NCBI GenBank assembly: GCA_032124375.1
Contig: JAQBDO010000032.1
Span: 1 to 24,371 of the forward strand
Direction: 5' to 3'
Length of the DNA stretch: 24,371 bases
Source of the DNA: Gammaproteobacteria bacterium
Lineage (GTDB): Bacteria; Pseudomonadota; Gammaproteobacteria; UBA9214
In this document: positions 497 through 17,537 of the stretch, in pieces
Layout: each line of letters opens with the position of its first letter
Position numbering within the stretch: position 1 is the first letter of the stretch
The notes under the pieces: generated by a model
What the model saw: the letters and a program-made list of their open reading frames with translations, nothing else
What the model was told of the DNA's origin: nothing
Databases searched by the model: none
Position numbers and translations under genes: made by a program

Positions 497-640
497 TGCT
501 GGCAGCATGAACGACCCGGTCTGTACCCGGTTTAACCTGTGCGTGGTTGCGTCAGTATCCGTGTGGCCTGGAGAATTGCGTGTCCGGCACCGGCCTGCTA
601 CCGGCTGCGAATCGAGGTGAGCCCGGCAGTGGTGCGGAAC

Positions 641-1786
641 ATGCGCAGTGCCCTGGCAGTCGCGGTCATCCTGCTCTGCGGCTGTGCAACTCTGCCAACT
701 ACCCGAACGCTCCTGCACGAGCCAATCCAGGTCATGGTCATCGAGGATGCGCCCGTCATGCAGGATGGCCGGGCGGGATTTCGCAAGGTCTTCTGCGCGA
801 GCATGCACACTGACGGGCTCCTGACTGGCGACGAGGATATATCCTGCGATCGCTGGCTGTGGCGCTTCCCGGACGAAGCGGAAGCAGGCAACAGCGAACC
901 CCTGGCCAGATCACCGCCTGGAAGACTCGCGGTATTCCTGGTCACCGGTGCGTTCAGCGAATGTGTCGGCGATGAGGCCAGGCCATTTTCCGCCGGTGCT
1001 GCACGGTTAAGCGCCAGCGGCGCCCACGTCGAGACTATCGTCGTCAGTGGCCGCTCCGGGAGCGATCATAACGGGCAACAGATCGCCAACGTGCTGGAGC
1101 ACGCCCGGTTGCGTGGCGACGAAACGACGGTTCTCGTAGGGTTCTCCAAGGGAGCGCTCGATATCCTGCATTTCCTGGTCAACTTTCCGGAACGCGCAAG
1201 CCAGGTGGATGCCGTCGTCAGCATCGCCAGCCCGATATTCGGCAGCCGCCTGGCTGACATGGCTGACCCGGTCTATTCGAATCTGCTGGCAAAGGTGCCC
1301 TACCCCGCGTGTCCGCCCGGCGACGGAAATATAATCCGCAGCCTGCGGACCGACACGGCGACGCAGTGGCTCGAATCAAACGCCCTGCCCGCGCATGTGC
1401 GCTATTACTCCCTGGCGAGTTTCACGACACGCGAACACGTGGCACGTGGACTGGTTTCAACCTGGAGGATCCTGAATCGCATTGATCCCCGCAACGACGG
1501 ACAGGTCATCGCGGCCGACGCCGTGATCCCGGGGGCTACGTTGCTCGGCTATACCAACGCGGACCACTGGGGTACGGCCACCACCATTGAATCCGTGCAC
1601 ACCTATCTCGGCGCACGCCCGGATCCGGCGCTCTTCCCGCTGGAAACGCTGTTTGCCTCGATCGTGCAGTACGTTTCTGCCGACCTTGCCATGAGCGCTG
1701 GCAACACAGGCTCAGCGCCTCGGCGTGGTCCCGGCCCGCACGACGAACGTCACCAGCCCCGGCAGGTTGTCGATACCGGGTTTTAG
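641..1786 (+). CDS. Lipoprotein alpha/beta hydrolase (lipase/esterase-like)
   Basis: ATG 641 gives signal peptide MRSALAVAVILLCG-C (lipobox-like). Nucleophile elbow GFSKG (GxSxG), candidate Asp in NDGQV, His in ADHW. The last ~25 codons are the antisense of a regulator fragment (see findings). The upstream GTG at 539 is less likely. Confidence 0.8.
   Translation: MRSALAVAVILLCGCATLPTTRTLLHEPIQVMVIEDAPVMQDGRAGFRKVFCASMHTDGLLTGDEDISCDRWLWRFPDEAEAGNSEPLARSPPGRLAVFLVTGAFSECVGDEARPFSAGAARLSASGAHVETIVVSGRSGSDHNGQQIANVLEHARLRGDETTVLVGFSKGALDILHFLVNFPERASQVDAVVSIASPIFGSRLADMADPVYSNLLAKVPYPACPPGDGNIIRSLRTDTATQWLESNALPAHVRYYSLASFTTREHVARGLVSTWRILNRIDPRNDGQVIAADAVIPGATLLGYTNADHWGTATTIESVHTYLGARPDPALFPLETLFASIVQYVSADLAMSAGNTGSAPRRGPGPHDERHQPRQVVDTGF
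1712..1786 (-). pseudogene. Diverged duplicate of the last 25 codons of the NarL/LuxR regulator at 4203-4847
   Basis: Minus strand reads LKPGIDNLPGLVTFVVRAGTTPRR*, versus LKLGIDNLPGLVKFAVRAGITTPRP* at 4203-4280. Manual alignment: 8 mismatches over 75 nt plus one 3-nt indel. Confidence 0.9.
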
Positions 1787-1949
1787 ATCGCCGGGCACCG
1801 CGGTCCTGCATTGGCATCCTGCAGCTCCCGCGTACGCAGGGAGCGCGCGCTTACCGCCGCACAGGCATCAGCTGAAACCGCTTCCCGATTGCACGGAAGT
1901 GATGACAGCAAGTGCCGGTGCCCGGGTGCTGGAGTTGTTTCACGACATC

Positions 1950-2012
1950 GTGTCCGTATTTTTACCTACGCGTTTTCCCGGATATCGAAGCGATTTGCCA
2001 GGTGCTAGTTTG
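1950..2012 (+). promoter_or_regulatory. Conserved 63-bp promoter module, copy A (upstream of the YsaB-like gene)
   Basis: GTGTCCG-TATTTTTA-CCTACG-N7-CCGGATATCG-N14-GTGCTAGTTTG; ungapped match to copies at 11912 and 13259. -35-position TATCGA (1983-1988), 17-bp spacer, TG-n-TAGTTT extended -10 (2006-2011). Confidence 0.7.
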
Positions 2013-2207
2013 CCTTCCTCTGGCCGACATACGGAACATTCATTGAGAAGACGAACATGTTCTGAAGAACCGGAGACAAATCACTCCCGGCTTTCGTTGT
2101 CGTCAACCCGCCGGATGAGAATCGATTTATTTCGGCTTCTGGCAACGGCGATAGCGTCATTACATGAATGGCGCTGGGAAGTTGCCCACCAACAGGAGAA
2201 ACGTTGT

Positions 2208-2795
2208 ATGAACAAGTACACAACCTGCCGTCTGCTGACGGGCAGCCTGATGTTTAGTGGCGCCGTCATCATGATGACGTTTACCGGCGTGGCGTCTGCC
2301 GAAGAGAACATTGCCATCGGTGACATGCCGCGTTATTGCCAGCTTGAAGCTGCCTCGGCTTTCGGTGTGAGTAACGACGACGTCATGACCTTGCCGGCGG
2401 AGAAAGATCACGGCAAGTACGTTGTTTACGGCCAGACGCCGGCAGAAGGACAAAACGCCCTGTTCTTCACCTGCAGGTTCAACGCGCACCGCCAGTTCGT
2501 CAAGGTCGATAAGCAATCGGACAACAGAACCCGTCCCCAGTCCGGGGGGAGCTCACATTCCCATGGCGGAGGCGGGATCGCCGTGAAGGATATGCCGAAG
2601 TACTGCGCCGGTGAAGCATCGGCGAAGTTCAGTCAACGCCCGAACCGTATCACCACCCAGAATGCGGTTGAAGACCACGGCATGTACTCCGTCTGGGGCC
2701 AGTATGAGGCGGAGCCCAACCCACAGCTCTTCATCTGTACCTTCTCCGCCGAAGGCAAGTTGGTCGGCGTGGATCTGCACAACCCCGGTGACTGA
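2208..2795 (+). CDS. Secreted protein with two tandem YsaB-like domains
   Basis: AGGAG at 2194-2198, ATG 2208, signal peptide ending VASA-EE. Two ~65-aa repeats (DMPRYC..EA...G.Y.V.GQ....F.C.F) separated by a Ser/Gly/His linker. The pattern resembles E. coli YsaB as recalled. Confidence 0.8.
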   Translation: MNKYTTCRLLTGSLMFSGAVIMMTFTGVASAEENIAIGDMPRYCQLEAASAFGVSNDDVMTLPAEKDHGKYVVYGQTPAEGQNALFFTCRFNAHRQFVKVDKQSDNRTRPQSGGSSHSHGGGGIAVKDMPKYCAGEASAKFSQRPNRITTQNAVEDHGMYSVWGQYEAEPNPQLFICTFSAEGKLVGVDLHNPGD

Positions 2796-2807
2796 TCCTT
2801 GTGGTTG

Positions 2808-2836
2808 AAAGAGCCCCGCCCTGGCGGGGCTTTTTT
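2808..2836 (+). terminator. Intrinsic terminator, probably bidirectional
   Basis: AAAG, stem AGCCCCGC / loop CCTG / GCGGGGCT, T-run to 2836; lies between convergent genes. Confidence 0.85.
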
Positions 2837-2921
2837 GCCTGCAGGGACGCCGGTAGCGACGCGATATGTTGCTGGCACCGCCACGCCTGTCTGTGCATGA
2901 AATGCTGACCTGCAGGCGCCC

Positions 2922-3329
2922 TCAAGAGCGCATCCCGTAGCGCGCTTTGAGCCATACCGCCGCCGTCCAGGTCAGCAGTGCGAACACCGCTCCCGCCAGC
3001 GCCGCGGCCCCCACACCGAGCAGTCGGTCCCCTGCTGACACCGTGACGCCCGGCTCGCCGCTTCCGAAGATCGATAACACCAGCATCGCGATGCCGCCGC
3101 CGGCCATCCCTTCCACTCCGACACGCAGGCCCGTCACCCACCTGCCGGGAGTGCCTGCAGCCAGGTACGCCTGCAGACGCAGGAAGGCGACCAGGCACAG
3201 CAGCGCGATGAGACCGACGAGCCACAGAAAACCGGGCGGAGGCGGTTTGTCCGCACCCAGCAGTGCAATGGCGACTGCCAGGACGAATAGTCCCGCCGCG
3301 CACGCCCCGGAAATGCTGCGGTTCGTCAC
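2922..3329 (-). CDS. Small integral membrane protein (~4 TM helices), unknown function
   Basis: Four hydrophobic segments; GGAGG 8 nt upstream of GTG 3329 (ORF track uses TTG 3347); convergent on the 2808 terminator. Confidence 0.7.
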   Translation of the reverse strand: MTNRSISGACAAGLFVLAVAIALLGADKPPPPGFLWLVGLIALLCLVAFLRLQAYLAAGTPGRWVTGLRVGVEGMAGGGIAMLVLSIFGSGEPGVTVSAGDRLLGVGAAALAGAVFALLTWTAAVWLKARYGMRS

Positions 3330-3721
3330 CCCTTCAGCCTCCAGCAAGCTTCGACCCCACCGTGCCCCTCATACCGCTGTCACCTGCGATCACAGTGCGT
3401 CCGCGATATTACCCACATCCCCTGGATATATGTAGCGTAAACCATACTTGAAATAACCATGAATTAACGCGTGTGTGAAGCAAGTCGCTGTATCGCAGAC
3501 TGGCATATCAGGCGCCGGACCACGTACAACATGTCGCGTCCCGGGCATCAGGATACTCCCAGCGACGATCCCGGCGGGAGGTTTAGGTGCAAACATGAAA
3601 ACTTTTGATAACGTAATCACTGCTGTCCCGTTAAATCATCACGATGATACTGCTAGTTGCTATATAGAAGCACAATGACCGCAGCTCAACCGTCCGAGAC
3701 ATGCACACGAACAGTCAGACA

Positions 3722-3991
3722 CGTCATCCCGGACGGCGCGAAGTAGAGATCCGGAATCCAGAGATTTTAGGAAACCCTGAATAAGTCGTCACCCCGGCGG
3801 AGGCCGGGGTCCAGTTTGTTGATTTTCCTGGATGATTCGCTTCGCTCACCCTGCGGGCCGCCCTCCGGGCGTTCAACGCGCTACGCGCTTTTGTCCGGCA
3901 TGTGCCGGAATGACGAAGGGGAACTTGTTCAGAGGTTCCTTTAGTGACTTACTGGATACCGGATAACGGCTGCGCCGTTTCCGGCATGACG
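3722..3991. repeat. Outer REP-like inverted doublet interrupted by a MITE
   Basis: Left arm CGTCATCCCGGA...CCGGAATCCAG (3722-3761); right arm CTGGATACCGG...CCGGCATGACG (3952-3991); the arms are inverted relative to each other. Confidence 0.8.
3770..3939. mobile_element. 170-bp MITE-like element with 16-bp TIRs and TTTA target duplication
   Basis: GGAAACCCTGAATAAG (3770-3785) / CTTGTTCAGAGGTTCC (3924-3939), 13/16 inverted match; TTTA at 3766-3769 and 3940-3943; no transposase. Confidence 0.7.
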
Positions 3992-4202
3992 ATGAAATGT
4001 TAACGGGACAGCAGTGTAACGGAGTACATAATGATGACAACTTCTCAGCAGTTCCACACCCTGGGAAACGGGGTCTGTCCCGGTTTTCCCCCGGTTTTCC
4101 CGGAGGACCGGACGCGGAACATTGCCGACACCGGGGCGCCGCTGCTTGCGAAACGCACGCTGAGTGATCGCAGGGAAAAGCTCCCCGCCAGCCAGCGCAG
4201 AA

Positions 4203-4847
4203 TCAGGGCCTTGGCGTGGTGATCCCGGCCCGCACGGCGAACTTCACCAGTCCCGGCAGGTTGTCGATGCCGAGTTTCAGCATGATGCGTGTGCGGTAGG
4301 TCTCCACTGTCCTGACGCTGATGCCAAGGGCCGCGGCGATCTCCTTCATTCGTCGCCCCTCCGCCAGCAGGCGCAGCACGTCACGCTCCCTGTCGCTCAG
4401 GTTGGCCTTGTCGAGTTCGATGCTGCGCAGCTGCGGCTGCGCCTCGGTCACCTGCCCGGCGGCCGGGCTGACAAATCGCTCCCCCCGCAGGGTAGCGGCT
4501 ATCGCTGTCACCAGGTCGTCGATCGCCTCGTTCTTGAGCACGTAGGCCGATGCGCCGGCCTCGAACATGCGCTCCTGGTAATGGGCGTCGCCGTACATGG
4601 ACAGCGCCACGATCTGTGTCTCCGGCGAAACCTGCCGGATACGGCGAGCCGCCTCCATGCCGTCCATGTGCGGCATCTCGACATCAAGCACGGCGATTTG
4701 CGGCCTGAGACGCTGCGCCAGCTGCACAGCCGCTTCACCGTCGTCGGCCTCGCCGACTATCTCCCAGTCAGCCTGCTTGCCGACCAGCAGCGCCAGGCCC
4801 TGGCGAAACAGTATGTGGTCATCTGCCAATAGCACGGTCAGTGTCAT
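4203..4847 (-). CDS. NarL/FixJ (LuxR-HTH) family response regulator
   Basis: REC domain (VLLADDH..., IAVLDVEMPHMDG, ALS, GASAYVLK) plus LuxR HTH (LSDRERDVLRLLAEGRRMKEIAAALGISVRTVETYR); ATGA overlap with the upstream gene. Confidence 0.95.
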   Translation of the reverse strand: MTLTVLLADDHILFRQGLALLVGKQADWEIVGEADDGEAAVQLAQRLRPQIAVLDVEMPHMDGMEAARRIRQVSPETQIVALSMYGDAHYQERMFEAGASAYVLKNEAIDDLVTAIAATLRGERFVSPAAGQVTEAQPQLRSIELDKANLSDRERDVLRLLAEGRRMKEIAAALGISVRTVETYRTRIMLKLGIDNLPGLVKFAVRAGITTPRP

Positions 4848-6025
4848 TCCCCTGGTACCTCCCTGTCAGGTATTCCCCTATTACAAGACTGTTGCGCTGC
4901 TTCCGCAACGGCCTCCTGCCCCTGTGCCAGGGGTATCTGTACACATAACCGCGTACCCGCCCCGTCCGATTCGATGGACAGACTGCCTCCCCAGAGTGAC
5001 AGTCGTTCGCCCGTGTTGAACAGGCCGTAACCACCTTCACCCGTCACCTGCGGGCCAATAACATCGTAATCGAAACCCCTGCCGTCGTCAGCGACAGTGA
5101 GTGTCAGCACATGCCCGTCGCAGCCCAGTTCCAGCCAGCCCCGGCTCGCCCCGGCATGCTTGACCATGTTGCAAACCAGTTCCCGCGCGCACTGGAACAC
5201 CAGCACGGCCAGCTCCCGGTCGAGTACCGGAACCGGCGAAGTTTCTGCAAACTCCACCGCCAACCCGAACCGCTGTGTCGTGTTCGCGGCCAGCCAGCGC
5301 AAAGCCGGCACGAGGCCCTCCCGGTAGAGCACCGGCGGGCTAAGATCGAACTGCAGGGTGCGCAATTCCTGCAGCGCCTCCCGCATCAGGTCCAGCCCCA
5401 CCTCCAGCAGGCGGTCCGATTCACTATCGCGGGACCTGGCAGCCGAGGCGACCTGCGCCTGGGCCAGGGCCAGCTTCTGCATCGGACTGTCGTGCAGCTC
5501 GCCGGCCAGGCGATTCTTTTCACGCTCCCCGACGCGGGTGATATCCATCGCCAGGCGCCGCAGCCTTGCATTGGCATCACGTAGCTCCCGCGTCCGCTCC
5601 GCCAGCGCCGACTCCAGATTGCGGGACAGGCGCCCGAGTTCCAGGTGGGTTTTCACCCGCGCGAGGAGCACCTTTATGTCAAAGGGCTTGAGCAGATAGT
5701 CAGCTCCGCCGCTGTCAAAGGCACGCACCATGGTCTCACTGTCATCCTTCCCGGTCAGAAAAATGACCGGGATATTCCGCGCGTCTTCACGGGACTTGAG
5801 GCGCCTGCAGGTCTCGATACCGTCAATCCCGCCGGGCATCAGGATATCCAGCAGCACCAGGTCGAGCCGTTTATCGAGCAGTATCGAATCCACTGCCTCC
5901 AGTGCCCGCTCACCGCTATCGGCCACATGCACCTGGTACCCCTGCCCGACAAGCAACTGGCCGAGAAAACGGATGTTTTCCGGCTCGTCATCCACAATCA
6001 GGATATTCCCGCGTGATACCGCCAT
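4844..6025 (-). CDS. Cytoplasmic REC-HisKA_3-HATPase histidine kinase (NarX/UhpB-type core with N-terminal receiver)
   Basis: N-terminal REC (ILIVDDE..., DLVLLDILMPGGIDG, KPF), coiled coil, H-box LAGELHD, N-box RELVCNMVKHAGA, G boxes DDGRGF and GYGL; GGAG RBS. Confidence 0.92.
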   Translation of the reverse strand: MAVSRGNILIVDDEPENIRFLGQLLVGQGYQVHVADSGERALEAVDSILLDKRLDLVLLDILMPGGIDGIETCRRLKSREDARNIPVIFLTGKDDSETMVRAFDSGGADYLLKPFDIKVLLARVKTHLELGRLSRNLESALAERTRELRDANARLRRLAMDITRVGEREKNRLAGELHDSPMQKLALAQAQVASAARSRDSESDRLLEVGLDLMREALQELRTLQFDLSPPVLYREGLVPALRWLAANTTQRFGLAVEFAETSPVPVLDRELAVLVFQCARELVCNMVKHAGASRGWLELGCDGHVLTLTVADDGRGFDYDVIGPQVTGEGGYGLFNTGERLSLWGGSLSIESDGAGTRLCVQIPLAQGQEAVAEAAQQSCNRGIPDREVPGE

Positions 6026-6080
6026 TAATTGCTCCGCTGTATTGCTCCGTCAGTTACCCCGAATTGATTGGCCATCCGGC

Positions 6081-6324
6081 CGGTAAACCCCCTCTCCCAG
6101 CGGGAGAGGGTTGGGGAGAGGGAATCGAATGACAGGCCAATCTTCCTGATTCATGTCCCATCATCCTCGGTAACTGCTCCTGCATTACCCTACCGCCTGC
6201 ATCCCTGCAGTCGTGCCCTTCTCCCGCAGGGAGAAGGAATGCGACTTTCCACATCCAGGATGCTTCTTGCGATATAGCCTTTCCCTGCGTTCCGACCCTT
6301 CGCCTAAAGGCGAGGGGTTTACTG
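6081..6324. repeat. REP-like composite element bounded by inverted repeats, inside the signalling operon
   Basis: CGGTAAACCCC (6081-6091) / GGGGTTTACTG (6314-6324), 10/11. Hairpins CCCTCTCCC-AGC-GGGAGAGGG (6090-6110), CCTTCTCCC-GCA-GGGAGAAGG (6217-6237) and CCCTTCGCCT-AA-AGGCGAGGGG (6296-6317). Confidence 0.75.
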
Positions 6325-6342
6325 ATCCCCTATACGGGGACT

Positions 6343-8976
6343 CTAAATTGATTCCGGACAACTACCACCTCCAGCCTGTCCCTCTCTGCTGCTGTCCGTC
6401 CCGTCTGCGGCTTCGCGACTTGCCATGTTACCGCCCCCTTCCAGCAGGCGTCTTAGCCCGGCGATATCGAATTCGTCCGCGAGGGTGGCGACGTGCTGCG
6501 CCAGGACCGGGCAGCAACCATCCGCGACCAGCTCTTCCGCCATCACCTTGATGGCAGTAACGCTCCCGGCCCGTATCAACCCGGCCAGGCGTTCACGGCG
6601 TTCGTCTCCCATCACTTCCATCCCGGGCGGCGACACCTCCCGCACCTGTTCTTCACCCAGCCATTCGAGGGGCAGCAGTGACCCTACAACCTCGAGCAAC
6701 GCATCACGCAGCACTGGCTTGGCAAGATGGGCATTGCAGCCGGATGCAAGCGCCCTGTCGCGATCCTCGCTGTAGGCGGCGGCGGTGACTGCCACGACAG
6801 GGATCTCACGCAGTACAGGGTTCGCGCGCAGGGCGCGCGTTGCCTGCAAACCGTCCATGCCTGGCATGCGCAGATCCATGAGGATGAGATCCGGCAGCTC
6901 GGCAGCGGCTTTCGCAACGCAGGCCTTGCCATGTTCCGCTTCATTTACACGAAAGCCAAGCGGCTCCAGCAAGCCACGCAGTATCTGCCGGTTGTCATAT
7001 TCGTCATCCACGACGAGGATGTGCAGCGGCCCCTGCCCGGTGGTACGCCGGTACCCGACCGTACTGGCAGCAGGGGACGGAATTGCCATCGTCCTGGCGG
7101 GGCAGCCCACGGTCTCCACGGGGAGACTCACCCGAAAACAGCTGCCCTCGCCGGGCTTGCTCTCGACGGAGATTGTTCCGCCCATCGCCTGCACCAGCTG
7201 CCGGGTAATGGCCAGCCCGAGGCCGGTACCCTGGATTGCATGCACACTGTCACCGACCTGCCGGAAAGGTTCGAAAATCTGCTCCTGCTGCGCCGGCAGG
7301 ATGCCGATCCCCGTGTCGGTCACTGCCAGTTCCAGGTTTCCGTCGTTATAGTCCGCGCGCACGGTCACCGTGCCGGCCTCGGTGTACTTGATTGCATTGT
7401 CCACCAGGTTCGCAAGGACCTGGTGCAGACGCCTGGCGTCGCAGTAGAGCCGGCGCGGCAACCCTGACAACGGTTCGATACGCAACTCGATCCCCTTTTT
7501 CCGGGCGCGCCCGCCAAACATGCCTGCCAGCTCCTGCAGCAGCTCGACGCTGTCCCATTCCACGGGCAGCAATTCGAAGTTGCCTGCCTCGATCTTCGCC
7601 AGGTCAAGTACATCGTTGATCAGTTCCAGCAGGCGTTCCCCGCCCCTGCGTATCCCGCGCGCGTGCTGGCGCTGATCTGCAAGCAGCCGTTTGTCGCCCT
7701 CCAGCAACTGCGCGAAGCCGAGCACCGAGTTCAGCGGGGTGCGCAACTCGTGGCTCATGCTGGCCATGAAAACATCCTTGGCACGGTTGGCGGCATCCGC
7801 TTCCTCGTGTGCCTTGCGCAGCCGGTCTTCCAGCGCCTTGTCCCTGTCAATATTCTCCACGAGCCAGATGGAGCCCAGCGTCGTATCGTTCGGGTCGATG
7901 AACTGGCCGATCAGCCGACCCCAGAAGCGGCTGCCGTCCTTGCGCTGCAGCAACTGGTCAGCACGGTAGATACCACCATCCGCCATGCGCATATATCCCA
8001 GCCTGCCGAGCCTCTCGTATGCCTCCCGGCCGGGGTACAGGTGTTCGGTGCTCATGCCGAGCATCTCCTGCTCTTCCCAGCCAAACAACTCCACTGCGCG
8101 CGGGTTGACGCGCACGATCGACCGGTCGACCAGGTGAACGACGCCGAGCGGCAGGGCGTCCAGGATCAGGCGCTGCTCCCGCACGAGTGCATCCAGTGTG
8201 CGGGTGCGATCTTCCACGAGCTGCTCCAGATGCTCGCGGATATTGGTAAGATCCCGCTCGTGCCGCTGGACCTGCTCCAGCATGGTGTTGAAGCCGCGAT
8301 ACAATTCCGCTATCTCGTCGTTCGAATCCGGCACGGATACCCGCAGGGAATAGTCCGCCCGCGCCGAGATCTCCTGTGTCTTGGCCGCCAGCTGCAGGAT
8401 GGGGTCCGAAACCCGCCGTTGCAGACGCAGCGCCAGCAGCAGCGACACCACCAGGGTCAACAGCAGCAGAGCCGCCGAAATAGCGGCGTAGCGCCGCAGC
8501 TGGCTGGCCAGCTGCTCCATGCCGGCGTAAAGGTAAATCTGCCCGACACGTCGCCCCTCAAGCATCAGGACCCGCACGACCTCGACGGTACCGGCGCCAC
8601 CAAACAGGGTAAAATCCACGAGCACACCCTCACCTGCCACCCGTGGGTCTCGTGGTGCCTGTGTTTCATCCCGGCTGTAGCGGGCGAAGACTTGGCCCTC
8701 GGCGTCGTACAGGGCTGCGTAGCGGATCTGGTTTTCCCGGCGCAGACTGGCGAGGTTTTTCTCCGCCGTTTCGGGTGCGTCGAATACCAGGGCCGACAGG
8801 CTGTTCTCGCCAACCACGACCGACAACACCTCCAGGTCCCGCACCATCTGGCCCTGCAACATGTAGACATCGTTGACGATGAACAGCGTGCCTGCGACGC
8901 TCAGCGTGAGCATGCTGATGGCTGCGGAGATCCGCAGCAGGCGCTGCCGTATCGAGGTCGGCTGCAGCAGGCTCAT
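6343..8976 (-). CDS. Membrane-bound hybrid sensor kinase: TM-periplasmic sensor-TM-HAMP-PAS-HisKA-HATPase-REC
   Basis: Two TM segments, HAMP (PILQLAAKT...DEIAELYRGFNTML), PAS, H-box FMASMSHELRTPLNSV, N-box LANLVDNAIKYT, DTGIGI, GTGLGLAI, REC (ILVVDDE, DLILMDLRMPGMDG, KP); ATGA overlap with the upstream gene. Confidence 0.95.
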   Translation of the reverse strand: MSLLQPTSIRQRLLRISAAISMLTLSVAGTLFIVNDVYMLQGQMVRDLEVLSVVVGENSLSALVFDAPETAEKNLASLRRENQIRYAALYDAEGQVFARYSRDETQAPRDPRVAGEGVLVDFTLFGGAGTVEVVRVLMLEGRRVGQIYLYAGMEQLASQLRRYAAISAALLLLTLVVSLLLALRLQRRVSDPILQLAAKTQEISARADYSLRVSVPDSNDEIAELYRGFNTMLEQVQRHERDLTNIREHLEQLVEDRTRTLDALVREQRLILDALPLGVVHLVDRSIVRVNPRAVELFGWEEQEMLGMSTEHLYPGREAYERLGRLGYMRMADGGIYRADQLLQRKDGSRFWGRLIGQFIDPNDTTLGSIWLVENIDRDKALEDRLRKAHEEADAANRAKDVFMASMSHELRTPLNSVLGFAQLLEGDKRLLADQRQHARGIRRGGERLLELINDVLDLAKIEAGNFELLPVEWDSVELLQELAGMFGGRARKKGIELRIEPLSGLPRRLYCDARRLHQVLANLVDNAIKYTEAGTVTVRADYNDGNLELAVTDTGIGILPAQQEQIFEPFRQVGDSVHAIQGTGLGLAITRQLVQAMGGTISVESKPGEGSCFRVSLPVETVGCPARTMAIPSPAASTVGYRRTTGQGPLHILVVDDEYDNRQILRGLLEPLGFRVNEAEHGKACVAKAAAELPDLILMDLRMPGMDGLQATRALRANPVLREIPVVAVTAAAYSEDRDRALASGCNAHLAKPVLRDALLEVVGSLLPLEWLGEEQVREVSPPGMEVMGDERRERLAGLIRAGSVTAIKVMAEELVADGCCPVLAQHVATLADEFDIAGLRRLLEGGGNMASREAADGTDSSREGQAGGGSCPESI

Positions 8977-9524
8977 TGCATCACCTCTGCCACATCGTAG
9001 AGCTGGGCCGATATCACCAGGCCCCGCTCCCTGAGCGCCGCCGGGTCGATGCGCAGGCGCAGGCGCTCTGTCTTGCGGAAGACGTCCGGCTTGCGAAACA
9101 GCTCGATGGCGACACCGCGACCGGCGTATCCCGGGGTATCACCGACCAGCAGTACGGGCTGACCGGCGGTGCGCCGGACGATGGCCTCGAGTTCCGCATC
9201 GGCGGCGCCGCCCACGAACAGGATCTCGCAGCAATCAGGTGCGCCGGGATATGCGTAGGCGTGAATTGCAATCGGCCTGCCGTTGACCTGCCTGGATTCC
9301 TGCTCCAGGACGCGCAGGCGGTTTTCCATGACCGGATCGCCGACGACGCCGATGACGAAGGGCTGATCCGCCGGGGCCTCGGGCCACTGGATGAAGCGGG
9401 TGAAGTTGTAGATGAATGCGACCTTCAGGTCAGCGAGCAAGCTGTCGCCCTCTGCGCTGCCCGCCAACGGCGACTGCACACAACACAGTACGAACGCGAG
9501 CAGCAGCACAGCGCAGCGCGGCAT
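8973..9524 (-). CDS. YfiR/DUF4154-family periplasmic protein
   Basis: Signal peptide, then LKVAFIYNFTRFIQWP, CEILFVG, VLLVGD..GYA..GVAIEL, LRLRID..ALRERGLVISAQL, typical of YfiR-like proteins; ATG 9524 preferred over 9557. Confidence 0.85.
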   Translation of the reverse strand: MPRCAVLLLAFVLCCVQSPLAGSAEGDSLLADLKVAFIYNFTRFIQWPEAPADQPFVIGVVGDPVMENRLRVLEQESRQVNGRPIAIHAYAYPGAPDCCEILFVGGAADAELEAIVRRTAGQPVLLVGDTPGYAGRGVAIELFRKPDVFRKTERLRLRIDPAALRERGLVISAQLYDVAEVMQ

Positions 9525-9544
9525 GACCAGTAGACCTGACTTGC

Positions 9545-11653
9545 TCAAAATTCCCAACCGACTGTCGCGGTGAACACCCTCCCCGGCCCGATCAGGCCCT
9601 GATCGAAGTCGGTCAGTTCATTGGCAGGGTAGCGGATCTCGGTGTCAAGCAGGTTCGAGACATTCAGGTCCGCGTAGAATCCGTTGGCAGGGTGCCTGTA
9701 GCGCAGGTTTGCGCCCAGGTTCCAGTACGCGTCGACTTCCTTGCCGATGCGCTCGGTGATGCCCTGTGTCGTGCCTTCCACGAAATTCCAGTCCGCTTCC
9801 ATCTCGTCAACGTAGTTGGCATAAGCCGCGTAGGTGAAAGGCCCGCGTGTATAGTCCGCCTTGAGCTTTAACAGCAGTTGCGGCGAGTATCCGGGATCAT
9901 TATTCGATTTGCGGTCCTCGGTATGCTGCCAGGTGGCGCTTGCTGCGAGATTCAGGCCGTCCAGCAGACGCAGCTCCCCGATCAGCTCCAGGCCGTTGGT
10001 CTTCCATTCGCCCGAGTTGTCATCGACGGGCTGGTACAACCCGGCATCGTCCAGCTGCTGAATTGTGCGGACAATATTGGAGATACGGTTCTGGAACAGG
10101 CTTGCGCCAATGCTCCAGTCAGAGCGAGTCTGCACGTAGTTGATCTCGGCGGTCTTGATGCGTTCGGGATCGGTAAGCTGGATCTGGTCATTGTCCTGCG
10201 CCGCAGTGCCGTAGATCAGTTTCAACACCTGGTGCGCATCGAGGCTGTAAAGGGCAGCGATCCGCCCGGTGACGATGTTCCGGTCGTCGACGGTGACATC
10301 CTCTTCCAGCCGGGTGTTATTCAGGTAATCCCGGCTGGTGTAGTCATACGAGTCCGGCAGCCGTGACACGCGCAAACCGCCGACGAACCGGAGTCGCGTG
10401 GTAGGACTCCAGCCCAGTTCCGCGAACAAATCGTGAACCGTAAAGGCATCGACGGTGTTTTCCTGATTGCCAAAAATGTCAATGTCGGCTTCGTTCCTGA
10501 TGTCGTCCATGCGCTGAAAGCGATAACCCGCCAGCAGGTTGAGATTCGCCCGCGGATCCCACAGGAGATTGAATTCCAGCTCATAGCGTCTTGATTGTTG
10601 CCGTTGATCGCCATCGAATGCGGGTGAAATAAGATCGAGATCCGGGATCTCGACACGTTCATCACTGACGATCGCATCGGCGCTCAGCCCCAGGTTTTCG
10701 GTAATACCATGTTTCCAGCCAAGCGCGGCATGCCACGTGGTCAGGCGCGACTGGTTGCCGTCGTCGAAGCTCGGTGTCAACCCGTATATGCCGTATTTCT
10801 TCTCGCTGTAGCGCAGGTCCGCCGACCAGTCCTGCCAGCCAGCAGACACATCCAGGCTGACATCTCTCTGATCCACATCTCCGTCGAGGCTGGTATGCAT
10901 GCCCGGCACCAGCGCCGCGAGCTGATCAGGTCCCATCATGTCAGCATAGTCTGCCTCGAGACCGTCGGTGCGGTAACCGCCGGCATTCAGCACGATGAAC
11001 CCGTCTGCGGACGCCGTCCCGGCGCGCGCGAACAGGCGGCCGCTGTCACGGCTACCGGCACTCGCGGATACCCGGGGACCGTTCAGGCCGATCTCGTTGG
11101 TCACCACGTTGATCACACCGAGGAAGGCGTTGTTACCGTAGATGACAGACATGGGCCCGCGAATCACCTCGATGCGATCGATGGACTCCACGGGGATGTT
11201 CAGGCGTGCGATCTCGGGAACCGTCAACGACTTTTGCCGTGACGGGTGCTGCGGAACCCCGTTGACGAGGAACTGGACTCCACCACCCGTGGTACCGCGA
11301 TTGCCGATGAAGCGGTCCTCGATGTTGTCCAGCACAAAAAATCCCGGCACGTTGCGCAGCAGTTCCTCGAAGGTAACCCAGCCGTAACGGGCAATCTCCT
11401 CGCGGCTGAGGATGGTCACGCTGGCCGGAATATCGCGGATCTGCTCGTCACGCTTGCCGGCTGAGCGAATCTCTACATCGAGCAGGTCTTCGAAGGGCAG
11501 ATCGAGCAGGCCGGCCTGCGGGCCCGGCAACGCTACCGGCGATGCGATGCTGAGGCCCAGTGCGAGTGCCCCGGCAATGCAAAATGCATGGATCCGTATC
11601 CCGGTGATTCGGCTGCAACCACCCGCGAGTCCGGTTCGCACACCCTGCTGCAT
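9545..11653 (-). CDS. TonB-dependent outer-membrane receptor (plug + beta-barrel)
   Basis: Plug motifs LLDLPFEDLLDVEIRSAGKRDEQIRDIPASVTILSREEI and IDRIEVIRGPMSVIYGNNAFLGVINVVT; C-terminal NLLD...GRVFTATVGWEF ending in Phe. Start is uncertain (ATG 11653 chosen; ORF open to 11899). Confidence 0.92.
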   Translation of the reverse strand: MQQGVRTGLAGGCSRITGIRIHAFCIAGALALGLSIASPVALPGPQAGLLDLPFEDLLDVEIRSAGKRDEQIRDIPASVTILSREEIARYGWVTFEELLRNVPGFFVLDNIEDRFIGNRGTTGGGVQFLVNGVPQHPSRQKSLTVPEIARLNIPVESIDRIEVIRGPMSVIYGNNAFLGVINVVTNEIGLNGPRVSASAGSRDSGRLFARAGTASADGFIVLNAGGYRTDGLEADYADMMGPDQLAALVPGMHTSLDGDVDQRDVSLDVSAGWQDWSADLRYSEKKYGIYGLTPSFDDGNQSRLTTWHAALGWKHGITENLGLSADAIVSDERVEIPDLDLISPAFDGDQRQQSRRYELEFNLLWDPRANLNLLAGYRFQRMDDIRNEADIDIFGNQENTVDAFTVHDLFAELGWSPTTRLRFVGGLRVSRLPDSYDYTSRDYLNNTRLEEDVTVDDRNIVTGRIAALYSLDAHQVLKLIYGTAAQDNDQIQLTDPERIKTAEINYVQTRSDWSIGASLFQNRISNIVRTIQQLDDAGLYQPVDDNSGEWKTNGLELIGELRLLDGLNLAASATWQHTEDRKSNNDPGYSPQLLLKLKADYTRGPFTYAAYANYVDEMEADWNFVEGTTQGITERIGKEVDAYWNLGANLRYRHPANGFYADLNVSNLLDTEIRYPANELTDFDQGLIGPGRVFTATVGWEF

Positions 11654-11911
11654 GGCAAAGACGCACCTGAGATGTTCCGCAAGCCGGGATGCTGCGTGAT
11701 ACGGAGAACTGCGAGAATTCAACACACTTGAAAGCCTTTTCCGGTGATCCTGGAATCCTGACGTGCTTTTATACCACATCACCAAAGTGCTACGGTAAGG
11801 CGAGGACCCGGACGGCAGGACGTGCCGAATCCCGCGTCGGCAACGCAACAGGGTTAATGTGCAATCCGAATCACCACGGCTTAACGGGAGAAACATCACA
11901 CCAGGCGCCGC

Positions 11912-11974
11912 CTGTCCGGTATTTTACTGACGCAAAATACCGGATATCGGTACAGGTGACGGGATGATATCGTG
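11912..11974 (+). promoter_or_regulatory. Conserved 63-bp promoter module, copy B (divergent region between TBDR operon and DUF4349 gene)
   Basis: CTGTCCG-GTATTTTA-CTGACG-N7-CCGGATATCG-N14-ATGATATCGTG; TATCGG (11945-11950), 17 bp, TG-n-TATCGT (11968-11973). Confidence 0.7.
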
Positions 11975-12112
11975 AGTTTGCAAGTGGCATTTTTCATGTA
12001 TTGCCTCCAGGAAACAAGCCGTTGTCATCACGTTTCCACGTCGATCTGACTGGTTTGATCGTTATCGCTCGACACAGGAAAGCGGCCTGACAGATCCCCC
12101 CCCTCCTCACAC

Positions 12113-12138
12113 GGCGGCCCCAGGGTCGCCTTTTTTTT
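12113..12138 (+). terminator. Intrinsic terminator in the leader upstream of the DUF4349 gene
   Basis: GGCGGCC-CCAG-GGTCGCC stem (one G-U pair) followed by T8 (12131-12138). Confidence 0.7.
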
Positions 12139-12204
12139 GAGGGTGCCGGGCGCTGCTATTGCCGCTCTCCTTGCCACGATGCGGACGCTCGAACGCTGAA
12201 CGAA

Positions 12205-13173
12205 ATGAGGTTTCCGATGCACAGCTTATGTCTTCCCATGATCGCGGTTGCGCTGGTGCTTGCAGGGTGCGAACAACAGGGCACGCAGAATCAGCGCGGG
12301 GATAGCACAGCGACAGCTGACTACACCGCGATGCCGCCTGCGGCACCGCCTCCCCCCGTTGCATTCGACGTCGGTGATAGCGAGTCACGCAGCGACACCG
12401 CGGCCGTCGCTATTGACGCCGATGCCGCAGACGACAGCAGCACCGGCCCTTCCGGCAGCACCGGGATGCTGCTCGCCTATCGCTATTCTGTCAGCCTGCA
12501 GTTACCTGCCCGTAACGTCCACCCTGCGATCGAGGCGCACCGGGCACAATGCAGTGCCGCAGGCCCGAACGTGTGCCAGGTACTGAGTTCCTCGATCACC
12601 GCGTACGGCGACGACGACATCAGCGCCAGTCTCTTCATCCGTGCCGTGCCGGACTGGCTGGCGACATTTCGCGGCAGGCTGGAGGCCGATGCGCAAACGG
12701 CGCATGGCAGGGTCGTTTCATCGAATGTGCAATCGGAGGACCTGACAAGGGTCTTTGTCGACACCGAGGCGCAACTGCGCGCAAAGCGCACACTCCGCGA
12801 ACGACTGGAGACCCTCCTTGCCAACCAGAGCGGCGACATTGGCGATCTGCTGGCGGTCGAGCGCGAGCTGGCAAGGGTGCAATCTGAACTCGACGCTGCA
12901 CAGGCGAACCTCGAAATCGTGCGCAAGCGCATTGACATGTCGACACTGGACCTGAGTTACCAGTCCGCGCCGGCGGCGCTCAGCCAGAGTGCCTTCGCAC
13001 CGATCGGTAGTGCGTTCAACAACTTCATGGAGATCTTTTCCCGGGCAGTAGCGCTGATCATCAAGCTCATTGCGGGTTTGACGCCTTTCGTCCTGCTCGG
13101 CGTGCCGCTTGGATGGCTGCTGCGGCACTGGTGGCGCCGGCGCCAGACTGGCAAGGCCGCAAATGGGGATTGA
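12205..13173 (+). CDS. DUF4349-domain lipoprotein / membrane protein
   Basis: Lipobox VLAG-C, low-complexity linker, LLAYRYSVSLQ, SEDLTRVFVDTEAQLRAK...DLLAVERELARVQSELD, C-terminal TM helix; start could be ATG 12217. Confidence 0.85.
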   Translation: MRFPMHSLCLPMIAVALVLAGCEQQGTQNQRGDSTATADYTAMPPAAPPPPVAFDVGDSESRSDTAAVAIDADAADDSSTGPSGSTGMLLAYRYSVSLQLPARNVHPAIEAHRAQCSAAGPNVCQVLSSSITAYGDDDISASLFIRAVPDWLATFRGRLEADAQTAHGRVVSSNVQSEDLTRVFVDTEAQLRAKRTLRERLETLLANQSGDIGDLLAVERELARVQSELDAAQANLEIVRKRIDMSTLDLSYQSAPAALSQSAFAPIGSAFNNFMEIFSRAVALIIKLIAGLTPFVLLGVPLGWLLRHWWRRRQTGKAANGD

Positions 13174-13258
13174 GGTGGTAGCAGCAACGCCTGCCATAGA
13201 ATAGCGGCATGAGCCGGCACGCCGCGGCGCGGCTCGGAATTCGCCAGACAACTCCTGG

Positions 13259-13321
13259 CTGTCCGTGTTTTTACTGACGTAGATAACCGGATATCGATGC
13301 TCGTGACAGGGTGATAGTTTG
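13259..13321 (+). promoter_or_regulatory. Conserved 63-bp promoter module, copy C (upstream of the BON gene)
   Basis: CTGTCCG-TGTTTTTA-CTGACG-N7-CCGGATATCG-N14-GTGATAGTTTG; TATCGA (13292-13297), 17 bp, TG-n-TAGTTT (13315-13320). Confidence 0.7.
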
Positions 13322-13477
13322 CCGCTCAGGCACTCGGTCTATTATACCCGCGAGTCCCTGGCAGCATTCATCGACCATCGAGAGCGACCATTTTGACTGC
13401 TACCACATGCGTTAATGTCAGGCTGCACAGGCAGCCATAGCGCAGGCTTCATTCATCATCAAACTGGAGAATTACTC

Positions 13478-14023
13478 ATGACAAGAACCATCAGAAACAA
13501 GTCGTTACTGGCTGCTATCGTATCAGTAATACTGGCATCCCCCGCGAGCTTCGCGGAGACCGCAGGCGAATACATCGACGACACGACTGTCGGCACCATG
13601 ACCAAGGCCGCGCTCGTGGATAACGAGACGGTTTCCGCACTGGACATCAATGTGGAGGTTTACAAGGGCAATGTACAGCTGTCCGGATTCGTCGAGTCCG
13701 AGGCACAGAAGGACGCCGCACTGGCGACTGCCGGTAAAGTCGACGGCGCAAAAAAGGTGCTTGATGCCATCGTTGTCCTGCCCGGTTCACGCAGCATGGG
13801 TGAGGCCGTGGACGACACCACCATCCAGGCAAAACTGAAAGCCGGCCTGGCCAATGTCCAGGGAATGGGTGACGCCGTGGCCATCAATACGTGGGTCAAG
13901 CACGGCCACGTCCTGCTTGCGGGTTTCGTTGACAGCGACAGTGTGAAAGCCGCAGCAGGAAAAGTCGCCAGCGGCATCGAGGGCGTCAAGAAAGTCCACA
14001 ACCACATCGCCATCAAGCATTAA
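13478..14023 (+). CDS. Periplasmic double-BON-domain protein (OsmY-like)
   Basis: GGAG RBS at 13466-13469; signal peptide ending SFA-ET; two BON repeats (IDDTTVGTMTKAALV...INVEVYKGNVQLSGFV; VDDTTIQAKLKA...GHVLLAGFV). Confidence 0.92.
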   Translation: MTRTIRNKSLLAAIVSVILASPASFAETAGEYIDDTTVGTMTKAALVDNETVSALDINVEVYKGNVQLSGFVESEAQKDAALATAGKVDGAKKVLDAIVVLPGSRSMGEAVDDTTIQAKLKAGLANVQGMGDAVAINTWVKHGHVLLAGFVDSDSVKAAAGKVASGIEGVKKVHNHIAIKH

Positions 14024-14229
14024 GGCAAGGACCCCTGCTGGACAAGTGCCCTGACCCGCCGGACTGCAGCGGGTCTGGGCCCTGACTGGCCGGAGCGAGT
14101 GGCACAGGGACAGTGAGGTAGCACCCTGTTTGGTAACACAGCAGGCCGGGTGGCAGGCAGTCTCCGACTGCCTTCACCACCTGTTTGCTGCAGAGCATAA
14201 CCCGGTACTCAGGAACGAGGCAAAGAAGC

Positions 14230-15021
14230 ATGCACATCACTCTCTGCACAAGATTTGTAACCGCACCACTTCTGCTGACTGTCTTCGCGCTGCTGGCAGC
14301 GCAGCCTGCAATTGCCGGCAGGGATATCCACACCGAGCGGGTACACTTCAGGCACGGCGCGAACAATGCTGTAATCGAGGCTTCGATCACCGGTTATGAA
14401 GTCGTCGATTATGTCCTGCGCGCCAGCAAGGGACAGCACATGAACGCCAGCATGGCCACCGACAACGGCGCCAACTACTTCAACATCCTCGCGCCGGGTG
14501 AGGACGAGGTCGCGATGTTCAACGGATCCATCAGCGAGAACCAGTATGAGGGTAGCTTGCCCGAGACTGGCGATTACAAAATCCGTGTCTACATGATGCG
14601 CAGCGCTGCGCGCCGTAATGAAATTGCGAACTACCGCCTCGAGGTGATCATAACCGGCGAGACAGCCCCGCCGGCTGATGCACAGCAGGATACCGCTGCT
14701 TCCGAGGTCACAACCCGTGCTGGAGAGGGCAATTTCGACGCAACCGGGAAAATCCCCTGCGCACAACACGCAGGCCAACCTGTGGGACAGTGCGATTTTG
14801 GTGTCGCGCGCGCCGGCGGCGGCACAGCCACGGTAGTCATTACCAGGCCGGATGGCAGCACACGTGCGCTGTTCTTTGTCGAGGGTAAATTCACCAGCGC
14901 CGACACGTCAGAGGCGGATGGCCATCCTGAATACAACGCAGAGCGCGAGAGCGATCTCAACCTGATTCGCGTCGGCAAGGAACGCTACGAGATACCCGAT
15001 GCAGTCATCTGGGGCGGGTAG
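14230..15021 (+). CDS. Secreted two-domain protein: PliG-like (g-type lysozyme inhibitor fold) N-domain plus Cys-containing C-domain
   Basis: Signal peptide ending AIA-GR. VHFRHG...ITGYEVVDYVLRASKGQ...SLPETGDYKIRVY..RSAARRN...Y resembles E. coli PliG as recalled. C-domain FDATGKIPC...QCDFGVARAGGG. Confidence 0.75.
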   Translation: MHITLCTRFVTAPLLLTVFALLAAQPAIAGRDIHTERVHFRHGANNAVIEASITGYEVVDYVLRASKGQHMNASMATDNGANYFNILAPGEDEVAMFNGSISENQYEGSLPETGDYKIRVYMMRSAARRNEIANYRLEVIITGETAPPADAQQDTAASEVTTRAGEGNFDATGKIPCAQHAGQPVGQCDFGVARAGGGTATVVITRPDGSTRALFFVEGKFTSADTSEADGHPEYNAERESDLNLIRVGKERYEIPDAVIWGG

Positions 15022-15109
15022 CCAATCATTGGAGCCCTGTGATGAGCGACCCTAGGTTCGGCATTTCAGGCAGAACCTGTCCATCAAAGGGACAAAAGAA
15101 GAAGAGAAA

Positions 15110-15427
15110 ATGAAAACCTTACTGGTCTTCATTCTGGGCGCAATCGTCGGCGGTATTGCGTGCATCGTACTTGCCTCGGGCCTGTTCACCGGCATCGGGG
15201 CCGGCGTCGGTATTGCCACCGGCCTGCAAGCCGGCGCCTGCCTCACGGTGGAAGCGGCCAGGGAGCAGGGACTGATCACGGCCGAACAGGTCGATGAGGT
15301 ACTCGTTGCGGCAGGCAAACTGATCACCTCGGAAGAATATGCCGGCACAGCGACAGCTTCGGGCAGTGATCTGGACTGTGAGAAGATTATTGCCCAATTA
15401 AAGGAAGCCACAAAGAAGGCAGAATAA
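15110..15427 (+). CDS. Small Gly-rich membrane-anchored hypothetical protein
   Basis: ATG 15110 after a purine-rich RBS-like stretch; hydrophobic Gly-rich N-terminal half, acidic C-terminal half with two Cys. Confidence 0.75.
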   Translation: MKTLLVFILGAIVGGIACIVLASGLFTGIGAGVGIATGLQAGACLTVEAAREQGLITAEQVDEVLVAAGKLITSEEYAGTATASGSDLDCEKIIAQLKEATKKAE

Positions 15428-15607
15428 GCCATTCTGCTGATCACCCCCCAAGCCTTGGGCAGGCTGTTTGCGGGACGATGTAGCGTCGCATGCAGGAAGC
15501 CTGCATACACTATCCCGGTCGCGAACGGCACTGTGCTACTGCAGGTCGAGGGTGTAAAAACGATCCGGGAACGCGACGGCCTGTGAATGTTCCCTGGCAA
15601 ACTTATG

Positions 15608-15628
15608 CTGTCCGGTTTTTCACTGACA
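15608..15628 (+). promoter_or_regulatory. Partial copy D of the promoter module (upstream box only)
   Basis: CTGTCCG-GTTTTTCA-CTGACA with the same 8-bp T-rich spacer; the downstream CCGGATATCG and -10 parts are not conserved. Confidence 0.5.
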
Positions 15629-15800
15629 GAAACCACCCGCAAGACACTGGTAATATGCGGCGGCAGGGTACGCTTTGACTACATGACTGGTTTTCATTCG
15701 CTAACGGCTTGCCAGGTCAGCAGTCAATGCAAACCGGGAATCACTAACTGCATAACACAACTTTACGTGCCAACACTGCTCCGGCACTCAGGAGGTCACA

Positions 15801-16082
15801 TTGGAAGAACAAATAGGTACGGGCATCGGCATCGTTGCCGGGCTGTTGATTCTGGCGGTATTCGGCGGCATCGTCGGCTGGATCGCCAGCCTGTTGATCA
15901 AGGGCACCGGGCTGGGCCTGGTCGGCGACATCATCCTGGGCATTGTCGGCGCCGTCGTCGGCGGCTGGTTGTTCCAAGCGCTTGGCCTTACCATCGGTGG
16001 CGGCATCATCGGCGCGTTTGTGCCGGCACTGGTGGGTGCTGTCGCGGTGCTGCTCATCGTTAAAGCAATCAAGCGGGCCTGA
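15801..16082 (+). CDS. GlsB/YeaQ/YmgE family (transglycosylase-associated) stress membrane protein
   Basis: AGGAGG at 15790-15795 then TTG; GGIVGWIASLLIKGTGLGLVGDIILGIVGAVVGGWLF...ALVGAVAVLLI signature. Confidence 0.9.
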   Translation: MEEQIGTGIGIVAGLLILAVFGGIVGWIASLLIKGTGLGLVGDIILGIVGAVVGGWLFQALGLTIGGGIIGAFVPALVGAVAVLLIVKAIKRA

Positions 16083-16085
16083 TAC

Positions 16086-16688: not shown

Positions 16689-16800
16689 GGCGAGCCCATC
16701 TCAAAATACGATTCTGCAGGAATACGCAGAGCCCCATGCCCTGCTCCGTACTCATGTGCCGCTATGAATAAGCCTCGGCACAACAAGCATATTTCTTCAA

Positions 16801-16948: not shown

Positions 16949-17101
16949 GGATTTAACCAAAGACTACTTGAATGAATGCGGCCCATAACTTGCCGGTTCG
17001 ATGTTGCTCCGGGATTCTTGTTCAGGATGCGGGATGGAAGTAGTCTACACAGAATCAGCAACCATCGGGATGCCAGCCAGGCAAGACTGTTGATTCCGGT
17101 C

Positions 17102-17515: not shown

Positions 17516-17537
17516 TCGCGACCTGGTTATGCCAGGA

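Follow-up and report, generated by a model that had tools for sequence, protein, structure and literature searches.

YfiR of Pseudomonas aeruginosa, part of the YfiBNR system, has a fold similar to that of type I periplasmic ligand-binding domains and two conserved cysteine pairs, Cys71–Cys110 and Cys145–Cys152; in published structures a single conserved surface serves both its outer-membrane partner and YfiN (PMC4655355). YfiR-like proteins also occur in a trio with a TonB-dependent receptor (TBDR) and a CHASE8 sensor. This trio is not new, being catalogued in NCBIfam as NF053590 (TOL_0244 TBDR), NF053591 (TOL_0243 YfiR-like) and NF053592 (YfiR-like-associated sensor kinase N-terminus). In a proteomic study the TOL_0244 receptor was 7-fold up on n-C28 alkane and was interpreted as an uptake protein (PMC6304351). 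Here we analyse an operon in which a trio of this kind is followed by a REC-HisKA_3-HATPase kinase (REC-kinase) and a NarL-type regulator. It lies on a 24,371-bp contig (JAQBDO010000032.1), the whole of which we call the window, of a metagenome-assembled gammaproteobacterial genome (82% complete, 445 contigs; the window is contig C32). In our judgement the best explanation, which we hold to be moderately probable, is that the window carries a horizontally acquired envelope-signalling island in which the signal would pass from the receptor to the YfiR-like protein, then to the hybrid kinase, next to the REC-kinase and finally to the regulator. An earlier reading of the letters alone, referred to below as the original prediction, had stated that no ligand or output was characterised for such clusters. 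Our literature search agrees, since it found no study linking DUF4154/YfiR proteins with TBDRs and no functional study of the trio, which had nonetheless already been catalogued.

The operon and its kinship with YfiR and YfiN

Each of the five genes is an open reading frame on the minus strand, and together they encode the domains listed in Table 1 (Pfam), as the original prediction had proposed. The ATGA overlaps that it placed at 8973–8976 and 4844–4847 can be read from the sequence, as can the 20-nt spacer from the receptor stop codon to the YfiR-like ATG (9525–9544), so that the core genes are tightly coupled by spacer and overlap. It had also distinguished the locus from FecA-type signalling by the absence of an extracytoplasmic function (ECF) sigma factor and anti-sigma factor, assigned it a kinase output rather than cyclic di-GMP (c-di-GMP), and put the TBDR in the place of YfiB, and these points are borne out. 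The contig has no Sigma70_r2 or FecR match and no STN domain was found in the receptor by Pfam; the output domains are PAS-HisKA-HATPase-REC; and the TBDR has no counterpart in YfiBNR, an OmpA-like YfiB gene being absent from the locus and no OmpA-family match being found among the open reading frames (ORFs) of the island in Pfam scans.

The receptor gene begins with an ATG at 11653, followed by a signal-peptide-like stretch, and its product matches Plug at 2.7e-19 and the barrel at 8.5e-25. It is 58% identical over its full length to a TBDR of Thiocapsa and 75% identical to that of an uncultured Chromatiaceae (locus L015); for the regulator the corresponding values are 58% (Thiocapsa cassette regulator) and 65% (L015). 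Neither kinase, and none of the three receivers (Asp/Thr/Lys motifs), has lost its phospho-acceptor residues. The hybrid kinase has kept its H-box (SHELRTP), N, G1 and G2 boxes and receiver Asp; the REC-kinase has kept its catalytic His (HisKA_3 ELHD), receiver Asp and ATP-lid motifs; and the receiver Asp of the regulator is seen in the alignment with the Thiocapsa protein.

Kinship with YfiR and YfiN, which the original prediction had drawn on as a parallel, emerges from domains, fold and gene order. The YfiR-like protein matches PF13689 at 1.1e-29, and its structure model (predicted local distance difference test score, pLDDT, 85.9) has P. aeruginosa YfiR as all of its best 15 PDB matches, with template modelling (TM) scores of 0.75–0.80, E-values down to 3e-8 and about 18% identity; substrate-binding proteins stand at ranks 16–21 and 28. 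An alignment profile of the protein also matches the solved YfiR at 2.9e-5. The hybrid kinase carries CHASE8 at 1.6e-14 and its gene overlaps the YfiR-like gene by ATGA. When we scanned the E. coli yfiR-dgcN-yfiB region, YfiR proved to be a DUF4154 protein and DgcN/YfiN to carry CHASE8 at 1.3e-33, the two genes standing in the same order as in the window and likewise overlapping. Since the fold matches and the E. coli gene order agree, we take the window pair to be homologous to YfiR/YfiN.

The three window proteins match all three NCBIfam trio models, each below the curated cut-off: the receptor scores 93.5 bits against NF053590 (cut-off 645), the YfiR-like protein 102.1 against NF053591 (125) and the hybrid kinase N-terminus 178 against NF053592 (194). 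A paralogous cassette in the same genome, on contig C50 at 651–5503 (L003), encodes a TBDR, a YfiR-like protein and a CHASE8-HAMP-GGDEF-EAL protein that pass all three cut-offs (717, 127.8 and 209). Part by part, the window and C50 proteins are 26%, 28% and 30% identical, a parallel divergence of the whole trio. Since the scores fall below the cut-offs and identity to the C50 set is only 26–30%, the window trio is a separate subfamily, which occurs mainly in Chromatiaceae-like genomes; the nearest relatives of the YfiR-like protein (60–70% identity) come from such genomes. The alkane-induced change in abundance is the only datum that our literature search gave for TOL_0244, and we do not extend it to the window receptor, a distant relative.

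The original prediction had suggested a neighbourhood survey. Ours covered 80 loci with YfiR-like relatives; it was seeded by a subfamily peptide pattern and is therefore a biased sample, not a census of DUF4154. In 41 of the 80 the TBDR gene lies directly upstream on the same strand, which supports conservation of the cluster. It is divergent and adjacent in 8, near in 3 and about 7.5 kb away in 17 (Marinobacter); it was not found in 7, and 4 loci reach a contig end. Directly downstream of the YfiR-like gene, about 64 of the 80 loci encode a CHASE8-HAMP protein, with HisKA, HisKA_3, hybrid kinase or GGDEF-EAL outputs. The phyla covered include Pseudomonadota, Bacteroidota, Acidobacteriota, Verrucomicrobiota and Desulfobacterota.

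The receptors linked to YfiR-like genes share a short peptide before the Plug domain. A motif related to the consensus D-L-x-x-L-S-x-E-x-L-M-x-x-E-V-x-S is present in all 38 aligned YfiR-linked TBDRs, from several phyla; the version in the window receptor is LLDLPFEDLLDVEIRS, and it includes a TonB-box-like VEIRSA, as read from the alignment. Among thirteen congener TBDR N-termini that we fetched, the peptide occurs in 2 further YfiR-linked receptors and is absent from all 10 readable N-termini of unlinked ones, which show ordinary TonB boxes; the eleventh unlinked receptor (L124) has no N-terminus in the fetched locus. The genus is poor in TBDRs, with 1–5 Plug matches per genome at completeness of at least 90%, and in one 92%-complete congener the sole receptor is the YfiR-linked one. 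Both Plug domains detected in the genome of the window, an incomplete assembly, belong to YfiR-linked receptors.

Exchange of outputs between related clusters

Conservation of all five genes as a unit, on which the original prediction had made its reading depend, is seen in L015 and in a second locus, L017, where all five proteins are 59–75% identical to those of the window. An independent metagenome contig, 98% identical, holds the receptor, YfiR-like and hybrid kinase genes and then ends. A four-gene form, consisting of TBDR, YfiR-like protein, single kinase and NarL regulator, is found in Thiocapsa roseopersicina and on four other contigs. The single kinase, of about 470 residues, has the architecture CHASE8-HAMP-HisKA_3-HATPase and spans both window kinases: in Thiocapsa its residues 37–258 align with hybrid kinase residues 34–256 (42%), residues 235–467 align with REC-kinase residues 138–366 (47%), and the helix after HAMP aligns with both.

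A database search with the kinase core returned 120 close homologs, of which 89 are fused to REC and 27 to CHASE8-HAMP, 4 being unclassifiable. The tree of these cores contains at least three switches between the CHASE8-HAMP-fused and REC-fused forms, and its root position is not fixed. For that reason we dropped, as a firm claim, an insertion into an ancestral single kinase. Midpoint rooting places the CHASE8-fused forms within the REC forms, an arrangement that would fit fusion by deletion. Thiorhodococcus mannitoliphagus appears to carry both forms, with a four-gene cassette containing a fused CHASE8-HisKA_3 kinase (L023) and, on another contig of 38,298 bp, a YfiR-like gene and a REC-HisKA_3 kinase (P0103, P0159).

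The REC-kinase/regulator pair can also stand behind hybrid kinases whose sensor is a different one, such as SBP_bac_3 in a genome of Competibacter, and in an Ectothiorhodospiraceae genome some 16 kb separate the pair from the sensor genes. Since trio loci differ in their outputs and other sensors precede the REC-kinase pair, two modules meet in the window: a sensory trio with exchangeable outputs, and a hybrid kinase/REC-kinase/regulator output with exchangeable sensors.

Island, candidate promoter module and genus context

Comparison of the window with 36 congener genomes (blastn) showed widely matched segments only at 1–497, 17034–17516 and 19260–20000. Isolated matches in one to three congeners lie at 14412–14684, 16215–16552 and 18496–18956, and the remainder are repeat elements. 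Since congener DNA matches are limited to the flanks and isolated segments, and 0 of 24 congeners have a REC-kinase ortholog, the operon lies on an island of about 16.5 kb that is present only in this species of its genus. The island also encodes YsaB-like, DUF4349, double-BON and META proteins.

Three of these envelope-protein regions carry copies of a candidate promoter module (Table 1). Its 28-nt core occurs in 3 copies in the window, as compared with 0.01 expected, and is exact to the pattern in all three; elsewhere in the assembly there is no good match and one match with 3 mismatches, on contig C288. Copy B holds a 10-8-10 palindrome (CCGGTATTTT...AAAATACCGG). Confinement of the module to the island, in three copies, fits an acquired 'sensor plus regulon' package, with binding of the regulator to the module being putative.

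A composite relic at 1725–1837 was also noted. Its part 1725–1786 copies the 3' end of the regulator gene (4219–4280) with 89% identity, and 1787–1837 copies an internal REC-kinase segment (5547–5597) with 82% identity, corresponding to the helix that links REC and HisKA_3. The two source segments are 1267 nt apart in the operon and are joined directly in the relic, which suggests that it is either the decayed remnant of a second copy with an internal deletion or a scar left by recombination at the edge of the island.

As to the second cassette, a DUF4154 match is present in 36 of 37 species-level genomes of the genus, almost always as a single C50-type copy; in two genomes the copy is split in two and in one only a fragment is seen. 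Twelve sampled congener loci are TBDR/YfiR-like/CHASE8-GGDEF(-EAL) cassettes, although no TBDR was detectable in one of them and another ended at the sensor. Only the genome of the window, among the 37, has a second DUF4154 gene of the window type. The C50-type cassette is thus part of the genus core, and the window cassette is unique to this species within the genus.

Table 1. Features of the operon and of the surrounding island, in window positions.
Feature	Position	Strand	Basis
TonB-dependent receptor, 702 aa, Plug and 22-strand-type barrel, no STN	9545-11653	-	Pfam
Receptor N-terminal peptide, residues 49-67, LLDLPFEDLLDVEIRSAGK, directly before Plug	11453-11509	-	alignment
YfiR-like (DUF4154) protein, 183 aa, predicted periplasmic, with signal peptide	8973-9524	-	PF13689
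Hybrid sensor kinase, 877 aa: transmembrane segment, periplasmic CHASE8, transmembrane segment, HAMP, PAS, HisKA, HATPase_c, REC, helical tail of ~100 aa	6343-8976	-	Pfam
Intergenic gap with repeat element, three REP-like hairpins	6026-6342	-	sequence, congener matches
REC-HisKA_3-HATPase kinase, 393 aa	4844-6025	-	Pfam
NarL/LuxR-type response regulator, REC-GerE, 214 aa	4203-4847	-	Pfam
Species-specific island (approximate limits), with operon and envelope-protein genes	498-17033		blastn against 36 congeners
Promoter module copy A (candidate), before YsaB-like gene (weak YsaB match)	1950-2014	+	repeat family
Promoter module copy B (candidate), divergent region between receptor and DUF4349 genes	11912-11976	+	repeat family D1/D3
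Promoter module copy C (candidate), before BON-domain gene	13259-13323	+	repeat family

Signalling model, alternatives and known systems

Gene content, homologies, preserved catalytic residues, the conserved unit, the modular exchange of outputs and the island are seen in the data; in the relay that we favour, every contact between proteins is what we infer, and so are the direction of control, the path of phosphotransfer and the regulon. In the resting state the YfiR-like protein would bind CHASE8 and fix the hybrid kinase in a single state of signalling. When a ligand or TonB alters the receptor, the change would pass through the family-specific N-terminal peptide and capture or free the YfiR-like protein, so that the kinase switches; sequestration of the YfiR-like protein by the TBDR, in the manner of YfiB, is here an inference only. 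The phosphoryl group would go to the receiver of the REC-kinase, which would in turn phosphorylate the NarL-type regulator, and the regulator would most likely act on the three copies of the island promoter module before the envelope-protein genes.

How the phosphoryl group might reach the REC-kinase deserves particular attention. The HisKA histidine may phosphorylate the REC-kinase receiver directly, in which case the receiver attached to the hybrid kinase would have a modulating role. Alternatively, the two receivers may be connected by a histidine phosphotransfer (Hpt) protein encoded outside the locus. No Hpt gene is present in any of the related clusters. Elsewhere in the genome there are a ChpA-like multi-Hpt protein on contig C129 and an orphan Hpt-like protein of 145 residues on C116 (3960–4397, minus strand; PF01627, 33.8 bits), beside rnc-era-recO-pdxJ. 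The hybrid kinase itself ends in a conserved, helical tail of about 100 residues that has no Pfam match even at E = 10. Within it a small helical domain is modelled at residues ~791–847 (window ~6436–6606, minus strand) with pLDDT 82–87. The best structural matches of the tail are Hpt domains (RcsD/YojN, HptB), at non-significant values (E ~1, TM 0.4). Since a conserved histidine is also missing, the tail was ruled out as a phosphotransfer domain; it may be a pseudo-Hpt or docking domain.

Several observations weigh against the favoured relay. Some YfiR-like/CHASE8 pairs, for example in Marinobacter, are without an adjacent TBDR. The YfiR cysteine pairs are absent, and no invariant Cys is seen in the subfamily alignment or in a wider one with E. 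coli YfiR, and only one, partly conserved Cys is present; regulation may therefore differ from that of YfiR. Although the hybrid kinase carries a receiver, no Hpt domain was found in the locus. A two-kinase cascade running through that receiver would need one and is thus not supported. A comparison of four orthologs shows that the tail, too, is without a conserved His, so that either of the two routes to the REC-kinase may apply, and the orphan on C116 is only a candidate bridge for the Hpt-less hybrid kinases of this genome. The promoter motif was looked for near the cassettes of relatives and did not turn up there. The neighbourhood of the five-gene relative L017 has no clear shared envelope-stress genes, an LprI-type lysozyme-inhibitor match being the only one, while Thiocapsa has Transgly_assoc and BON genes near its cassette. 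The two kinase genes are no longer close neighbours, a repeat element lying between them. Finally, two runs labelled 'metatranscriptomic' (X7 and X9; window 1500–17500), which contain the whole stretch, are flat in depth, and their contigs bridge divergent promoters. Since the flat depth extends over genes and intergenic DNA alike, these libraries probably contain genomic DNA and are not usable as expression evidence. Two other runs gave short, low-depth pieces inside the receptor, YfiR-like and kinase genes, one of which spans the receptor/YfiR-like junction (9452–9836). Co-transcription of the five genes is plausible at most.

An appreciable, though lesser, probability attaches to an alternative in which the receptor is an ordinary importer that never touches the YfiR-like protein, and the imported substrate binds the YfiR-like protein or CHASE8 and so switches the kinase, as with PfeA/PfeS-PfeR and PirA/PirS-PirR. 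The Plug, barrel and TonB-box-like segment of the receptor do appear intact (TonB-box function being predicted), the genome has three TonB_C matches, the YfiR fold is akin to periplasmic ligand-binding domains with substrate-binding proteins as the next-best structural matches of our model, and the TOL_0244 receptor was read as an uptake protein. A simple importer, however, would have no need of an extra peptide that is confined to YfiR-linked receptors, and specific partners would be expected to diverge in parallel, as the three parts do between the paralogous cassettes; moreover, Pfam scans of the island ORFs revealed no inner-membrane transporter gene in the operon for an imported substrate. 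It is the peptide and the parallel divergence that lead us to favour a direct relay from receptor to adaptor over import followed by sensing. The same peptide speaks against the idea that the receptor is an output, with the kinases sensing through CHASE8/YfiR-like protein and PAS and controlling the receptor and nearby envelope genes, so that adjacency reflects co-regulation only. Two-component systems commonly adjoin transporter genes under their control, and module copy B does lie in the divergent region upstream of the receptor gene; yet this copy is on the plus strand, directed away from the receptor gene, and the receptor/YfiR-like/sensor order is kept across phyla whatever the output, which fits a sensing unit. 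We regard this account as improbable.

The 318-nt gap (6026–6342) between the kinase genes, which the original prediction did not mention, bears on whether the five genes still form one pathway. Its RNA fold has z = –2.9, and the segment 6059–6347 matches many sites in congener genomes as a multicopy repeat across the genus; the gap is therefore an inserted repeat element. The same junction measures 20 nt in the L015 and L017 operons, and assemblies of public runs break or have loose ends at 6090–6123 and 6288–6347. In public runs, spikes in depth and breaks in the assemblies fall at three short-repeat families of the window (3617–4016, 6059–6347 and 16805–16908), which have many copies in the genome and its congeners. 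The repeat may have uncoupled the REC-kinase and regulator from the sensor, or the island may be decaying after transfer; the structured repeat, the relic fusing a REC-kinase fragment to the regulator 3' end, and the Ectothiorhodospiraceae genome in which the pair is distant from the sensor genes would all fit. Against this, the five reading frames are intact with their catalytic residues kept, no intrinsic-terminator match is found in the gap, the sensor part recurs at 98% identity in an independent metagenome, and about 97% of the words sampled from this stretch are present in public runs from several studies. We consider such uncoupling very unlikely.

If the receptor signals through the YfiR-like protein, a surface signal would cross the envelope without an ECF sigma/anti-sigma pair. 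More tentatively, and with rather less confidence than in the relay itself, we propose that peptide-bearing TBDRs could constitute a second, ECF-sigma-independent class of TonB-dependent transducer, in which the energised receptor would signal to a soluble YfiR-like adaptor that gates CHASE8 sensors, their outputs being interchangeable (a single kinase, two kinases in cascade or c-di-GMP enzymes), and that this genome might run two insulated copies, one core and one acquired with its own regulon. The trio spans many phyla and has curated models, and the literature search returned no study of its ligand, contacts or output. Specific to the window are the two-kinase output, which has repeatedly changed places with a single fused kinase in evolution, the combination of a core c-di-GMP cassette with an acquired kinase cassette in one genome, and the candidate regulon confined to the island. 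The locus is convenient for tests, being compact and self-contained on the acquired island, with three module copies as a candidate read-out, and the paralogous cassette in the same cell allows tests of partner specificity. Comparison of the natural one-kinase and two-kinase versions would show what is gained from an extra phosphorelay tier, for example cytoplasmic PAS input.

Among known systems, the YfiBNR system (TpbB/DgcN-YfiR-YfiB) of P. aeruginosa and E. coli and HmsCDE of Yersinia share with the window a DUF4154 gene upstream of, and overlapping, the gene for a CHASE8 protein. As in YfiBNR, a third, outer-membrane partner is encoded in the same operon, but here it is an upstream TBDR in place of the downstream OmpA/Pal-like lipoprotein YfiB, the output is a hybrid histidine kinase rather than a GGDEF cyclase, and the YfiR-like protein lacks the YfiR cysteine pairs and is only about 18% identical to the solved YfiR. 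With the NCBIfam trio the window has in common the order TBDR, YfiR-like protein, CHASE8 sensor on one strand and the same types of part, although its proteins fall below the cut-offs and are 26–30% identical to the C50 set. The window receptor resembles FecA of FecA-FecR-FecI in having an N-terminal extension before the TonB-box-like segment; this extension is of about 12 residues, whereas the STN domain has 80, the contig has no ECF sigma or FecR-type anti-sigma factor, and a soluble YfiR-like protein would here serve as the periplasmic relay. Multi-step phosphorelays and multi-kinase systems are exemplified by ArcB, BarA, RcsCDB and GacS/RetS. Like these, the window has a hybrid kinase with a receiver, followed by further receiver proteins and a terminal NarL-type regulator; it differs in that an Hpt is missing from the locus, another kinase makes up the second tier, and the REC-kinase/regulator pair also follows other sensors (SBP_bac_3, Competibacter).

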